This document shows positions 34,287 through 58,998 of a stretch of DNA of 64,000 bases, in pieces. Numbering within the stretch: the stretch's first letter is position 1; each line of letters starts with the position of its first letter. Below the pieces are notes generated by a model. That model made no database searches. It saw only the letters and a program-made list of their open reading frames with translations, and was not told the DNA's origin. A program made the translations under genes and the position numbers. This DNA comes from Eledone cirrhosa (Eukaryota): NCBI GenBank assembly GCA_964016885.1, contig OZ024740.1, positions 145,576,001-145,640,000 of the forward strand, given 5' to 3'.

Positions 34287-34695
34287 GGTGGCTGCCAACT
34301 CGTTTTCGAGTACGGCCACTACTTCATATCCATGTAGGAGAACCTCTACCGATGCGCTGAACGAGTGTGACTTTTTAGTCCAGCCAGCGACTTGAAAACT
34401 CTGGTACAAACACTACACTTGTGACAATTATTGACACATAGTGCTAGGCCCATGGTACCATGTGACGACAAGTGCAGAGAGATCTCCAGATATAAAGCAA
34501 TGCCTGTGCCGTGAAGCCTTTATAGTGAGCAAAGGCACTGCACAAAGCCAGTCCCACTCTCTTAACCAAGATGATATTTACCAAAAAGAAGAACAAGTCA
34601 ACATCATTGGATACCATCAGGGTTGCAGGTGTTATATCAGAGTTTTCCTTCTCCTAGAATTCTGCCTTGACAAAGGCTAAGGGGTCATCTCTCCC
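34287..34695 (-). mobile_element. 608-bp RTE-derived non-autonomous element, copy 1 (5'-truncated)
   Basis: Near-identical to five other copies; 3' end ...cgagttggcagccacc followed by (ATGT)n. Confidence 0.9.
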
Positions 34696-36535
34696 ATATA
34701 TATATACATACATATATACATACATACATACATACATACATACATACATACATACATACATACATACATACATACATACATACATACATATATATATACA
34801 TACATATATACATACATATATACATACATACATATATACATACATATATTCATACATACATACATACATATATATATACATACATACATACATACATATA
34901 TATATACATACATACATACATATATATACATACATACATACATATATATACATACATACATATATATACATACATACATACATATATATACATACATACA
35001 TATATATACATACATACATATATATACATACATACATATATATACATACATACATATATATACATACATACATATATATACATACATACATATATATACA
35101 TACATACATATATATACATACATATATATACATACATACATATATATATACATACATATATACATACATATATATACATACATACATACATATATACATA
35201 CATACATATATATACATACATACATATATACATACATACATATATATATACATACATACATATATATATACATACATATATATATGTGTGTATGTATATG
35301 TGTGTATGTATATACATACATATATATATACATACACACATATATACATACACACATATATACATACACATATATATACATACACATATATATACATACA
35401 CATATATATACATACACATATATATACATACACATATATATACATACACATATATATACATACACATATATATACATACATATATATACATACACATATA
35501 TATACATACTCATATATATACATACACATATATACATACACATATATATACATACATACATATATACATACACATATATATATATACACATATATATATA
35601 TACACATACATATATATACACATACATATATATACACATACATACATATACACATACATACATATATATATACATACATACATACATATATATATACATA
35701 CACATATATATATAGATATATACATACACATATATATATAGATATATACATACACATATATATATAGATATATACATACACATATATATATAGATATATA
35801 CATACACATATATATATAGATATATACATACACATATATATATACATACACATATATATATATATATACATACATATATATATATATATACATACATATA
35901 TATATATATATATATATATATACATACATATATATATATATATACATACATATATATATATATATACATACATACATATATATATATATATATACATACA
36001 TATATATATAGATATATACATACACATATATATATATATATACATATATATATATATATACATACATACATATATATATATATATACATACATATATATA
36101 TATATATACATACATACATACATATATATATATATACATACATACATATATATATATACATACATATATATATATATATACATACATACATATATATATA
36201 TATACATACATACATATATATATATATATACATACATATATATATATATATACATACATATATATATACATACATATATATATACATACATATATATATA
36301 CATACATATATATATACATACATATATATATACATACATATATATATATATATATATATATACATACATACATATATATATACATACATATATATACATA
36401 CATATATATACATACATACATATATATACATACATACATATATATACATACATACATATATATACATACATACATACATACATATATACATACATACATA
36501 CATATACATACATACATACATATACATACATACAT

Positions 36536-37143
36536 GGTGGCTGCCAACTCGTTTTCGAGTACGGCCACTACTTTATATCCATGTAGGAGAACCTCTACCG
36601 ATGCGCTGAACGAGTGTGACTTTTTAGTCCAGCCAGCGACTTGAAAACTCTGGTACAAACACTACACTTGTGACAATTATTGACACATAGTGCTTTACCC
36701 TTGATACCATGTGACGACAAGTGCAGAGAGATCTCCAGATACAAAGCAATGCCTGTGCCGTGAAGCTTTTATAGTGAGCAAAGGCACTGCACAAAGCCAG
36801 TCCCACTCTCTTAACCAAGATGATATTTACCAAAAAGAAGAACAAGTCAACATCATTGGATACCATCAGGGTTGCAGGTGTTATATCAGAGTTTTCCTTC
36901 TCCTAGAATTCTGCCTTGACAAAGGCTAAGGGGTCATCTCTCCCAGTGATTTTGGATGGCCATTGACTCTTATGAGCTCCTTTGCCCTTTGACAGGTTTT
37001 GTTTTTAGTCCTGCAGGATGTCCAAAGTCACCCTCCTCACCAAGAAACCTTGGTGGGGTTGCCAGTTTAGTCGCCAACGACCCGACCATGAGACAGGTTG
37101 TACTGGGATACATGTTACCAGTAGCACCAAGTGGTGACCTGAC
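36536..37143 (-). mobile_element. 608-bp RTE-derived non-autonomous element, copy 2 (full length)
   Basis: Starts GTCAGGTCACC, ends cagccacc(ATGT)n. Confidence 0.9.
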
Positions 37144-37434
37144 ATAAATACATACATACATACATACATATACATACATACATATATATATACATACATA
37201 TATATATACATACATATATACATACATATATATATACATACATATATACATACATATATATATACATACATATATACATACATACATATATACATACACA
37301 TATATATACATACACATATATACATACACATATATATACATACACATATATATACATACACATAGATATATACATACATATATATATACATACATACATA
37401 TATATATACATACATATATATATATACATACATA

Positions 37435-38306
37435 TCATCATCATCATCATCATCAACGTTTAACGTCCGTGTTCCACGCTTGCATGGGTTTGGACGGGGG
37501 TTTTCCCACTTGAGGCAAGAGTGATTGTCTTGCTCGCATAGGACTGTCTGGCAGGTTTTCTACAGTTGGATGCCCTTCCTAACACCAACCACATTTACAG
37601 TGTGGGTCTGGGAGGTTTTTACCGTGTTGCCTACACGGCCACATTACAGCGTGGACTGTGTGTTTTTTTGTCGTGACACCTACACAACCTCTTTTGTTTC
37701 GGCCTGGATGGCGCGGCACCAACATAACTTTACATAGAACGGGGTGGTGTGGATTGGGTGGGGGTGATGGTGGTGGGACGGGGTGTATTTTGTTAGAGAT
37801 GCCTACTGGTTGGAGTAGGTTTTACTATATATTTAGGTAAGGCGGGTCTTCTCTGTTACTGAGTACCGCCAAAGGTCTCGGTCCAGTGACATTGTCTTGG
37901 AGAGGTGTAAGTGTGTGATGTCGGAGTTTATCAGCTCATCCCAGGTTTTTCTAGGTCTGCCTATTCCGTGACTACCGTCTACCTTTATTGCCCTGCACTT
38001 TGTTATACAGCTATCGACTTTCATGCGCATCACGTGTCCATACCAACGTAGCCTTCTCTCGAGTAAACAACATCTGATCCCTCTTATCTCTAATTTTTTC
38101 CTTAGTTCGTTTATGCTTTGCCGTTCACGTATATTACTGTTACACATCCAACGGAGCATGCAAGCTTCGTTCCTCTCTAGTCTGCGTATATCCTCTGCAC
38201 ACAATGCCCAGGTCTCACTGCCATGCAGCATTGCTGTTCGTATGCAGGCATCGTACAACCTGCCTTTCACTTTTAGGGAGAACCCTTTAGCAGCTAATAG
38301 TGGTAT
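37435..38306 (-). mobile_element. RTE LINE family B, 5'-truncated copy
   Basis: [11 protein letters not shown]...HGSETW...WYGHVMR...KTRLT*, (GAT)n tail. Confidence 0.94.
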
Positions 38307-56839: not shown

Positions 56840-57447
56840 GGTCGCTGCCAACTCGTTTTCGAGTACGGCCACTGCTTTATATCCATGTAGGAGAACCCCT
56901 ACCGATGCGCTGAACGAGTGTGACTTTTTAGTCCAGCCAGCGACTTGAAAACTCTGGTACAAACACTACACTTGTGACAATTATTAACACATAGTGCTGG
57001 GCCCATGGTACCATGTGACGACAAGTGCAGAGAGATCTCCAGATATAAAGCAATGCTTGTGCCGTGAAGCTTTTATAGTGAGCAAAGGCACTGCACAAAG
57101 CCAGTCCCACTCTCTTAACCAAGATGATATTTACCAAAAAGAAGAACAAGTCAACATCATTGGATACCATCAGGGTTGCAGGTGTTATATCAGAGTTTTC
57201 CTTCTCCTAGAATTCTGCCTTGACAAAGGCTAAGGGGTCATCTCTCCCAGTGATTTTGGATGGCCATTGACTCTTAAGAGCTCCTTTGCCCTTTCACAGG
57301 TTTTGTTTTTAGTCCTGCAGGATGTCCAAAGTCACCCTCCTCACCAAGAAACCTTGGTGGGGTTGCCAGTTTAGTCGCCAACGACCCGACCATGAGACAG
57401 GTTGTACTGGGATACATGTTACCAGTAGCACCAACTGATGACCTGAC
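56840..57447 (-). mobile_element. 608-bp RTE-derived non-autonomous element, copy 4 (full length)
   Basis: Same ends as copy 2. Confidence 0.9.
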
Positions 57448-57593
57448 ATATATATATATACATACATACATACATACATATATATACATACATACATATA
57501 TATACATACATACATATATATACATACATACATATATATACATACATACATACATATACATACATACATACATACATTCATACATATATACAT

Positions 57594-58201
57594 GGTGGCT
57601 GCCAACTCGTTTTCAAGTACGGCCACTACTTTATATGTAGGAGAACCCCTACCGATGTGCTGAACGAGTGTGAATTTTTAGTCCAGCCAGCGACTTGAAA
57701 ACTCTGGTAGGTACAAACGCTACACTTGTGACAATTATTGACACATAGTGCTGGGCCGATGGTACCATGTGATGACAAGTGCAGAGAGATCTCCAGATAT
57801 AAAGCAATGCCTGTGCCGTGAAGCTTTTATAGTGAGCAAAGGCACTGCACAAAGCCAGTCCCACTCTCTTAACCAAGATGATATTTACCAAAAAGAAGAA
57901 CAAGTCAACATCATTGGATACCATCAGGGTTGCAGGTGTTATATCAGAGTTTTCCTTCTCCTAGAATTCTGCCTTGACAAAGGCTAAGGGGTCATCTCTC
58001 CCAGTGATTTTGGATGGCCAGTGACTCTTAAGAGCTCCTTTGCCCTTTGACAGGTTTTGTTTTTAGTCCTGCAGGATGTCCAAAGTCACCCTCCTCACCA
58101 AGAAACCTTGGTGGGGTTGCCAGTTTAGTCGCCAACGACCTGACCATGAGACTGGTTGTACTGGGATACATGTTACCAGTAGCACCAACTGGTGACCTGA
58201 C
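57594..58201 (-). mobile_element. 608-bp RTE-derived non-autonomous element, copy 5 (full length)
   Basis: Same ends; small indels near the 3' end. Confidence 0.9.
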
Positions 58202-58394
58202 ATAACATATATATATATACATATATACACATATATACATACATACATACATACATACATACATACATACATATATATATATACATATACATACATATAT
58301 AAACATATATACATACATACATACATACATACATATATATACATATAAACATATATACATACATACATACATACATATATATATATATATATAT

Positions 58395-58998
58395 GGTGGC
58401 TGCCAACTCGTTTTCGAGTACGGCCACTAATTTATATCCATGTAGGAGAACCCCTACCGGTGCGCTGAACGAGTGTGACTTTTTAGTCCAGCGACTTGAA
58501 AACTCTGGTACAAACACTACACCTGTGACAATTATTGACACATAGTGCTGGGCCCATGGTACCATGTGACGACAAGTGCAGAGAGATCTCCAGATATAAA
58601 GCAATGCCTGTGCTGTGAAGCTTTTATAGTGAGCAAAGGCACTGCACAAAGCCAGTCCCACTCTCTTAACCAAGATGATATTTACCAAAAAGAAGAACAA
58701 GTCAACATCATTGGATACCATCAGGGTTGCAGGTGTTATATCAGAGTTTTCCTTCTCCTAGAATTCTGCCTTGACAAAGGCTAAGGGGTCATCTCTCCCG
58801 GTGATTTTGGATGGCCATTGACTCTTAAGAGCTCCTTTGCCCTTTGACAGGTTTTGTTTTTAGTCCTGCAGGATGTCCAAAGTCACCCTCCTCACCAAGT
58901 AACCTTGGTGGGGTTGCCAGTTTAGTCGCCAACGACCTGACCATGAGACAGGTTGTACTGGGATACACGTTACCAGTAACACCAACTGGTGACCTGAC
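58395..58998 (-). mobile_element. 608-bp RTE-derived non-autonomous element, copy 6 (full length)
   Basis: Same ends; 4-bp deletion. Confidence 0.9.

Follow-up and report, generated by a model that had tools for sequence, protein, structure and literature searches.

Six same-facing copies of a probably bipartite RTE-derived element in a polarised microsatellite field of Eledone cirrhosa

Results

The window analysed here is a stretch of 64,000 nucleotides of the octopod Eledone cirrhosa (assembly GCA_964016885.1, contig OZ024740.1, positions 145,576,001 to 145,640,000 of the forward strand), and all coordinates refer to it. A coding exon of Nck lies on the minus strand at 21017..22006, with splice-acceptor-like sequence just upstream. 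Right upstream of this exon begins a polarised (TA/CA)n microsatellite field (22092..58395), which is interrupted by retroelements and in which 13 measured blocks contain 2,424 C versus 53 G on the plus strand. Individual arrays reach 3 kb and show higher-order periods of 20-72 bp.

The window contains six copies of a short element, all on the minus strand and probably lying sense within an Nck intron. Four are near full length (607-612 bp), namely copy 2 (36536..37147, 612 bp counting a TTAT start), copy 4 (56840..57447), copy 5 (57594..58205, with one 4-nt duplication and one 4-nt deletion) and copy 6 (58396..59002, with one 4-nt deletion). The other two are 5'-truncated at distinct points: copy 1 (34287..34694, 408 bp) starts near position 204 of the complete element, and copy 3 (42831..43313, 483 bp) lies downstream of a neighbouring three-finger RTE, 75 bp from its 3' end. 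A previous sequence-only reading of the locus had described six minus-strand copies of 608 bp; number and strand stand, but the length applies to the four longer copies only. Also in agreement with that reading, copies 4, 5 and 6 form a head-to-tail trio with spacers of 148 and 191 bp, copy 4 being the 3'-most member, and the 3' tails of the copies open with (ATGT)n or (AT)n, the ATGT coverage in the first 24 nt of the copy 6 tail being 0.17. Contrary to what had been proposed, the flanks are not exclusively microsatellite: besides the RTE close to copy 3, about 20 nt of AT-rich sequence and then a GIY-YIG remnant lie upstream of copy 6, at the edge of the array. The arrays behind the copies are 148-2,843 bp long. 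The reported common start of four copies, GTCAGGTCA, was recovered, and in three of these four the shared 5' end is 4 nt longer (TTAT). Since TT is so rare in the arrays (53 of 15,360 dinucleotide positions), TTAT probably belongs to the element. Three-frame translations of the copies yielded short frames only, and no endonuclease/RT ORF.

The 5' part of the element (about 400 nt) includes two conserved RTE 5'-UTR blocks. The first (36885..36944 in copy 2, minus strand) was compared by eye with the supplement of PMC5786205, so that its match to RTEs is one at motif level and by eye rather than a scored alignment; the second (36751..36806 in copy 2, minus strand) resembles a segment of IdioSINE2/RTE-2_Croc, likewise by eye and unscored. 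The motif GAAGGAAAAC.CTG occurs in all six copies and nowhere else in the window, and the RTE/SINE alignments in the same supplement contain 76 instances of a 12-mer of the RTE 5'-UTR motif, which bears out the RTE-5'UTR-like motif noticed earlier.

The first 130 nt (37018..37147 in copy 2, minus strand) may form a weakly structured domain with a long-range closing stem that includes the first bases of the element. Folding of this window, which was picked after the fact, gave z-scores of -1.3 to -2.4, the first 105 nt alone gave +0.3 and -0.9, and two of four copies kept the closing stem when folded together with 200 nt of context. There was no covariation in the domain among the four near-identical copies. 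With regard to ribozymes, no Rfam ribozyme family was found in the element, and a home-made HDV descriptor gave no strict fold beginning at the 5' end; its strict matches, found in three of four copies, begin inside the element and have a non-canonical loop, and shuffled sequences match as well in 20 of 100 cases. An HDV fold assembled by hand broke down at P1.1/P3, and no twister or hammerhead core was seen in the 5' part by eye. A tRNA-SINE origin was rejected on the basis that ARAGORN predicted no tRNA gene, that no small-RNA family (tRNA/5S/7SL) of Rfam was found over 56.8-59.05 kb even at E up to 10, and that no pol III A box was present at one mismatch in the two copies scanned, in which B-box-like matches occur at positions 505-540 only.

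The 3' part (about 190 nt) contains the end of an RTE ORF of the three-zinc-finger type, namely its last ~42 codons, together with the RTE terminal hairpin. In copy 2, the fossil ORF end (36595..36723, minus strand) comprises the H-x3-H of the penultimate finger, a linker, the last C2H2 finger and a stop. A profile of 32 three-finger RTE tails recognised this region in four of six copies with E 4.3e-8 to 8.7e-8 (1,577 ORFs of the window scanned), its alignment starting at the H-x3-H of the penultimate finger, versus only E 0.011-0.12 in the two frameshifted copies. The earlier statement that the finger is still encoded holds to the letter in three of six copies; the copy at 42.8 kb ends in AHS, and in those at 57.6 and 58.4 kb the frame is broken by 4-nt indels. 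Selection on the finger was rejected in view of these two frameshifts and of an in-frame stop 57 codons upstream. The terminal hairpin (36537..36568 in copy 2, minus strand; z -3.0 in copy 2 and -2.3 in copy 4) is followed by the (ATGT)n/(AT)n tail, and the 3' UTR of the element measures 60 nt. As had been claimed, the hairpin matches that of the RTE at 43.9 kb (84% over 32 nt, E 7.6e-4).

This neighbouring RTE (43389..45001, minus strand) is a 5'-truncated three-finger element with a stop at ~43856, a low-complexity 3' UTR and the same terminal hairpin at 43392-43423. The claimed likeness between the last fingers is real (15/22 residues, 44/72 nt), but three unrelated RTE proteins tie with it at 15 residues. 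Judged from these comparisons, the likeness points to a subfamily motif, not to parentage, and the 43.9 kb RTE was ruled out as the parent, being a relative only. Searching the fossil peptide against longer proteins gave six candidates, none at E<=0.01, and phmmer against 1.84 billion representatives gave 137 matches, all multi-stretch and at most 59% identical, none of them a parent. With the 43.9 kb RTE as query, 0 of 87 stretches of prokaryote genome bins matched; a profile scan returned 6 of 46 stretches at 25-37% identity, none of which matched the element at the DNA level, and phage records gave no match. Both halves speak for the internally deleted RTE proposed earlier, though no parent was recovered in the protein and prokaryote-bin searches, so that we infer the deletion junction.

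All six copies face the same way (two-sided p=0.031; 4/4 and p=0.125 if the trio is counted once), in a sample that consists of one locus picked for its striking look, and the orientation lock is modest. When the PHD-finger families are also counted as RTE-type, a label assigned by us and not by a tree, the minus strand carries 11 of the array's 12 RTE-type inserts (p 0.006) and five of six in the other RTE-type families alone (p 0.22); addition of two non-RTE inserts gives 11 of 14 (p 0.057). CR1-like and R4-like inserts face the opposite way. One RTE-type insert (27551-29060) lies on the plus strand inside the same array and is followed by a C-rich, not a G-rich, repeat. Outside the array, the polarity is on the same strand in 10 of 11 informative microsatellites (13 found, in about five separate places). 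Beside the microsatellites at 7.8-10.5 kb, neither a family member nor an RTE tail was detected, and at 11.3-11.4 kb the tract behind an old RTE 3' fragment on the plus strand is G-rich, contrary to the regional polarity.

Upstream of five of the six copies lies another minus-strand RTE end, separated from the copy by microsatellite alone. ATGT covers 0.71 of the 48-nt flanks behind the six 3' ends and 0.62 of those ahead of five 5' ends, versus 0.45 at 16 flanks of eight other inserts (one-sided p 0.002 for 3' and 0.025 for 5'), where the flanks are not independent and the sixth 5' flank (0.08) was omitted as non-microsatellite. A target-site duplication, for which about 7-15 bp would be expected, was not demonstrated: the match of a copy to its own flank was the longest in three of six copies (in one by a single base), tied in one, lower in one and zero throughout in one, the flanks being microsatellite. 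Continuity of the array pattern was not found across five copies, as 97 and 94 of 120 permutations do as well; across all 11 inserts, it gave p 0.04 at 70 nt and 0.40 at 130 nt. At the 3' junctions, some copies start with ATGT and others with AT. Tail starts of the (AT)n type carry no polarity, which counts against tail pairing.

Discussion

The composition of the copies argues strongly that the element is a bipartite non-autonomous RTE. The explanation that we favour for the locus as a whole, and consider reasonably probable, is a young bipartite RTE retroposon of an octopod that was guided by its tail into a polarised array. It would have arisen by an internal deletion of a three-zinc-finger RTE that spared the 5'-terminal ~400-425 nt and the 3'-terminal ~190 nt, and because the deletion happened to end inside the ORF, a non-functional last finger would have been left. 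Transcription would probably start from the retained RTE 5' end by pol II, and the APE-RT protein of the parent, to judge from the family, would recognise the 3' hairpin in trans. Each copy would then be inserted separately by target-primed reverse transcription, in line with the different 5' truncations and the private mutations. Pairing of the (ATGT)n/(AT)n tail of the RNA with the nicked TACA strand would lead to the mostly one-way insertion observed in the polarised AT/AC tract, often in the tail of an earlier minus-strand RTE. Every insertion would add a short ATGT-rich seed, and the kilobase arrays and the regional polarity would be mainly products of host microsatellite slippage. Pairing between tail and target is in our estimate the likeliest cause of the shared orientation, with slightly better than even confidence. 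The sequence-only reading had already proposed this pairing, which is plausible and corresponds to a model put forward for RTE elements in PMC6007223, but it draws on six copies at one locus. Its further suggestion that the element creates (TACA)n fits the raised ATGT just behind the 3' ends, but finds little support in view of arrays that extend 148-2,843 bp behind the copies and of the same polarity outside the array.

Two alternatives concern the nature and the history of the copies. As the first 200 nt match nothing searched and SINE bodies commonly hold RTE 5'-UTR blocks (PMC5786205), the element could be a chimeric SINE of the WALLSI1 or Ceph-SINE type, in which RTE 5'-UTR and 3' pieces follow an unknown 200-nt head. 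Neither a tRNA, 5S or 7SL head nor an A box is present, however, and the conserved block lies at positions 204-263, about its place in autonomous RTEs, where it sits mid-UTR (PMC5786205), which makes this origin quite unlikely. The copies, or at least the trio at 56.8-59 kb, could also stem from local duplication, tandem or segmental, or from an assembly artefact: the trio is head-to-tail with short spacers, the surrounding repeat is unstable, and copies 5 and 6 have one variant in common. A single clade produced by tandem duplication, the outcome that the earlier reading had named against itself, was looked for and not found. Mutual divergence in the trio (2.49-2.67%) falls within the range of all 15 pairs (1.96-3.53%) and equals that of distant copies, 53 variant columns are private versus three shared, and no variant is common to all trio copies. 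The junctions and spacers of the trio differ from one another as well (edit distances of 18-22 per 140 nt, where random array pieces give 25 +/- 5 and some distant pairs 13-15), and two copies have 5' truncations of their own. Because the variants are almost wholly private and the trio members are no closer to each other, local duplication of the trio seems unlikely, and as an account of the copies it has very little probability; a duplication very shortly after insertion may have occurred in the trio. The alignments indicate that in all likelihood the copies were inserted independently.

The shared orientation can be explained in two other ways. In a self-building cascade, RTE tails would seed the array, later copies would enter these tails, and the whole polarised field would be RTE-made. 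The position of five copies behind minus-strand RTE ends, the ATGT enrichment behind the 3' ends and the G-rich tract behind the plus-strand fragment at 11.3-11.4 kb are consistent with this, and microsatellite formation by RTE tails is published (PMC2887409). Against it, 10 of 11 microsatellites outside the array have the same polarity, those at 7.8-10.5 kb without a detectable RTE tail beside them, the plus-strand RTE at 27551-29060 is trailed by a C-rich repeat, and the long arrays with their 20-72 bp periods resemble slippage products; we regard a field made entirely in this way as doubtful. Alternatively, the orientation would be due to chance or to the host transcription unit, with polarity and element direction each following the Nck strand and otherwise unlinked. 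The minus-strand copies are all sense to Nck, which is a confounder for orientation, the exon acceptor lies just downstream of the array, and the polarity is regional; moreover, four of four clustered events reach only p 0.125, and the CR1-like and R4-like inserts face the other way. The agreement of 11 of 12 RTE-type inserts speaks against this, as does the fact that selection on intronic retroelements usually favours the antisense and not the sense direction, and we consider such an unlinked origin improbable.

The only unusual feature is that six copies face the same way in one long simple-repeat tract, and the locus is a natural test bed only. The element is useful for octopod repeat annotation, and the finger that it keeps identifies its mobiliser as a three-finger RTE. 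Should orientation follow array polarity genome-wide, this would offer a clean large-scale test of the published idea of strand choice by the RTE RNA tail and would help to explain the long polarised microsatellite tracts found here. A more far-reaching idea, which is speculative and on the unlikely side, is that octopod RTEs with a non-specific APE endonuclease are de facto microsatellite-targeting through the RNA tail alone, that a feedback, in which the tail picks the strand and each insertion adds target of the same polarity, builds one-way retroelement/TACA intron fields of tens of kilobases, and that the 130-nt 5' domain could be a hitherto undescribed processing RNA freeing copies from host read-through transcripts.

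Bipartite non-autonomous RTEs are a kind already well described, and the element is very probably a further member. Like the ORF-less LINEs Bov-A, RTESINE1/2, WALLSI3, MAR4_MD and RTE-N2_Lch (PMC5786205), it combines part of an RTE 5' UTR with an RTE 3' end that runs into a microsatellite tail, has variable 5' truncations and lacks both a small-RNA head and coding capacity. In contrast to these examples, it keeps ~42 codons including the last zinc finger, and its 3' part is longer (~190 nt versus ~40-90 nt in the SINEs of Table 1 of PMC5786205 and 70 nt in RTE-N2_Lch). Its host is an octopod, and the supplement of that paper gave no match for 'octopus' or for the 5'-end motifs of the element. 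The Ceph-SINEs and IdioSINE2 of squids and cuttlefish (PMC5786205) share the conserved RTE 5'-UTR block, and IdioSINE2 has a similar second block and 3' hairpin (by eye), but both have a tRNA head and a CORE-like domain, neither of which is present here (CORE motif judged by eye). As described in PMC9115989, RTE-2_OV of Octopus vulgaris is an octopod RTE whose ORF ends with a C2H2 finger and whose 5' UTR is ~600 nt long, and an RTE of this class is a plausible mobiliser. By the same description, its 3' UTR of ~600 nt is mostly microsatellite, like that of the 43.9 kb RTE, versus 60 nt in the element. PMC6007223 and PMC2887409 share with our proposal a tail repeat that steers or primes insertion and a tail that adds new microsatellite; in the sections examined, their subjects are the initial bases of target-site duplications and dispersed insertions rather than same-facing clusters in one kilobase-scale array, and RTE insertion is described as not sequence-specific (PMC2887409). 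In the literature searched, which covers subscription journals thinly, we found no paper on this element or on orientation-locked cephalopod RTE clusters. Dong (TAA), TRAS (TTAGG) and Mino (AC) also pile up in simple repeats, but they belong to other clades (R4, R1) and use sequence-specific endonucleases.

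Results

Six copies of the element, a short ORF-less RTE-derived retroposon, lie on the minus strand (34287-34694, 36536-37147, 42831-43313, 56840-57447, 57594-58205 and 58396-59002), and the sequence-only reading was right about both number and strand. Its length of 608 bp holds for four copies (607-612 bp), the other two being 5'-truncated at different points (408 and 483 bp), and the peptide it quoted is exact in three of the six, with one copy ending differently and two frameshifted. The full copies have the common start it described, which three of the four extend by four bases (TTAT); as the TT dinucleotide is scarce in the arrays (0.35%), they are probably part of the element. 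The claim of flanks made up of microsatellite alone fails at the last copy, where the upstream flank is AT-rich for about 20 nt and then gives way to a GIY-YIG remnant.

Pairwise differences between the copies span 1.96-3.53%; with each indel column counted on its own, 53 variant columns are private and 3 are shared. The insertion junctions differ as well. Within the head-to-tail trio (copies 4-6) the differences are 2.49-2.67% and no variant is common to all three. A duplication directly after insertion is conceivable, but target-primed insertion of each copy on its own is the simpler explanation; the independent origin of the copies is largely established. Each copy is 1.0-1.9% from the majority of the six, a local consensus, and thereby within the 2% limit by which Bonar et al. 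(PMC13282606, accessible text) define recent activity of insertions in O. vulgaris.

In its 5' part, the element carries a conserved RTE 5'-UTR block (element positions 204-263), described in the accessible part of PMC5786205 as the RTE-derived half of the Ceph-domain with a mid-UTR location; the 12-mer core of this block occurs 76 times in the available supplement of that study (Kojima 2018). Positions 342-397 resemble, by eye, a UTR segment of IdioSINE2/RTE-2_Croc. Neither a tRNA gene, an Rfam family nor a pol III A box was detected in the element, and an identity as Ceph-SINE was rejected on the missing tRNA gene and A box. HDV-like ribozymes (as cited in PMC5786205) and twister variants (PMC8501958, available text) are possible in RTEs; neither was found in the element's 5' end. 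Structure in the first 130 nt is moderate (z -1.3 to -2.4), with no covariation seen, and the closing stem is kept in just two of four copies given more context.

For the 3' part, the ORF of the local 5'-truncated three-finger RTE (43389-45001, minus strand) was used as query and gave 94 relatives; in 32 of these, three fingers stand at the C terminus. Against the 1,577 ORFs of the window, a profile of these 32 tails matched the four copies that stay in frame (E 4.3e-8 to 8.7e-8), and the two frameshifted ones at 0.011-0.12 at best. The match begins in the penultimate finger, at its H-x3-H, which would put the 5'/3' junction near element position 420-425. The element retains about 42 codons, a 60-nt 3' UTR and a hairpin at the terminus (z -3.0 in one copy, -2.3 in another, and -2.0 in a third using a different window); that a finger was kept is a matter of chance, set by the point at which the deletion stopped. 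Six sites in the window have the hairpin core, namely five copies and 43400-43413, the true 3' end of the local RTE after about 430 nt of low-complexity UTR. The proposed finger match to this RTE stands at 15 of 22 residues but is tied with three database proteins. With 44 of 72 nt the same in the finger region and just two DNA matches (28 and 32 nt), it was rejected as the parent and is a relative only. Protein, prokaryote genome-bin and profile searches did not find an autonomous parent. They also met non-LTR reverse transcriptases in records labelled bacterial genome bins (L001-L006, P0034), whose short contigs are probably eukaryotic contamination; L004 sits in a 198 kb contig.

Two coding exons of an adaptor Nck/dreadlocks-like gene with three SH3 and one SH2 domains were mapped on the minus strand (21017-22006 and 13336-13539), and no additional one was found in the window. 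Exon 21017-22006 has 96% identity to an NCK1-like protein of Argonauta hians, the other matches listed reaching at most 84%, which marks the window as octopod DNA. Acceptor-like sequence lies directly upstream of it, and the array start adjoins the upstream side of the first mapped coding exon. The (TA/CA)n microsatellite field interrupted by retroelements (22.1-58.4 kb) is probably within an upstream Nck intron, and its polarity is strong (plus strand C 2,424 versus G 53 in 13 blocks). A local inverted duplication marks the array edge at approximately 22540-23125 (22810-22865 versus 23123-23066, 97%; longer arms by eye). At 60096-62250, a 466-bp unit is repeated about 3.2 times with 99% identity and continues as an inverted copy, which would be either a fold-back of recent origin or an artefact of the assembly. 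Short old dispersed repeats pair 1321-1738 with 20569-20745 (about 180 bp, 69-73%) and 396-473 with 20077-20151 (78 bp, 85%).

Two families of non-LTR elements, of about 75% mutual identity, encode an RT followed by a PHD-like finger and end in (GAT)n tails; a tree-free assignment would place them in RTE. They lie at 23436-24521, 27551-29060, 29203-30599, 37436-38302, 39800-42377, 46101-46333 and 62410-64000 (four minus, three plus). At 27551-30599, two copies with 92% identity stand tail to tail, 142 bp apart, as a 1.4 kb inverted repeat in the array. A possibly young CR1/L2-like element (49729-53996, plus strand) faces against the RTE inserts; its endonuclease-RT frame is open over 1,045 codons, and a Gln-rich frame upstream contains two Cys/His repeats. 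Also on the plus strand within the array is a 3' fragment (31108-32070) that carries a zf-RVT (CCHC) motif and by eye looks R4/Dong/Hero-like. Penelope-like remnants were seen at 47002-48252 (minus; no Pfam match at 0.01) and 58993-59421 (plus; GIY-YIG Pfam match, E 1e-4).

Discussion

That the copies cluster facing one way is a genuine signal, though a small one. All six copies point one way (p 0.031), or 4/4 with the trio as one event (p 0.125). A wider count, which takes in the six copies, the three-finger RTE at 43389-45001 and five of the elements with PHD-like fingers (presumed RTEs on the tree-free assignment), gives 11 of 12 RTE-type inserts in the same orientation (p 0.006). Those other than the six copies contribute 5/6 (p 0.22), and all twelve together with the plus-strand CR1-like and R4-like inserts yield 11/14 (p 0.057). 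The counts leave out an RTE 3' fragment on the plus strand (46.1-46.3 kb) because its flanks are not microsatellite. Direction might instead be tied to Nck, to which all six copies are also sense, and this confounds the count. ATGT coverage is 0.71 behind the 3' ends of all six copies and 0.62 ahead of the 5' ends of five, against 0.45 beside other inserts, these flanks not being independent; the raised ATGT beside the copies is compatible with seeking and with seeding alike. At the six copies target-site duplications were not shown, and no continuity of the array pattern across inserts was found.

The sequence-only reading had the tail both seeking and creating (TACA)n. The creating part is weakened by the same polarity outside the array in 10 of 11 informative microsatellites at about five places, and neither a family member nor an RTE tail was detected beside those at 7.8-10.5 kb. 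RTE tails do add microsatellites according to the accessible part of Tay et al. (PMC2887409), and the tail tract of an old plus-strand RTE-type 3' fragment (11322-11456) is G-rich on the plus strand, opposing the regional polarity; however, a C-rich repeat follows the plus-strand RTE at 27551-29060, and a polarised repeat created by RTE tails appears doubtful. Most likely, the target array would have been polarised before insertion: a pol II RNA would be made from the retained RTE 5' end, a three-finger RTE protein would bind its 3' hairpin in trans, and the ATGT/AT tail would anneal to the nicked TACA strand, favouring one orientation. Such a role of the tail in target pairing was proposed for RTEs by Nishiyama and Ohshima (PMC6007223, available text).

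In the literature searched, no published description of the element's family was found; it may already be catalogued in Repbase or Dfam. The accessible part of a shrimp study (PMC3124438) adds nothing further on RTE. Finger-bearing RTEs are transcribed in octopus, as the available text on RTE-2_OV reports (PMC9115989), and RTE-2_OV is likened here to the presumed mobiliser class by description, not by sequence. The closest counterparts are Kojima's bipartite ORF-less RTE derivatives, many of which appear in the accessible part of PMC5786205: the element is like them in every testable feature and by these features belongs to this already known kind.
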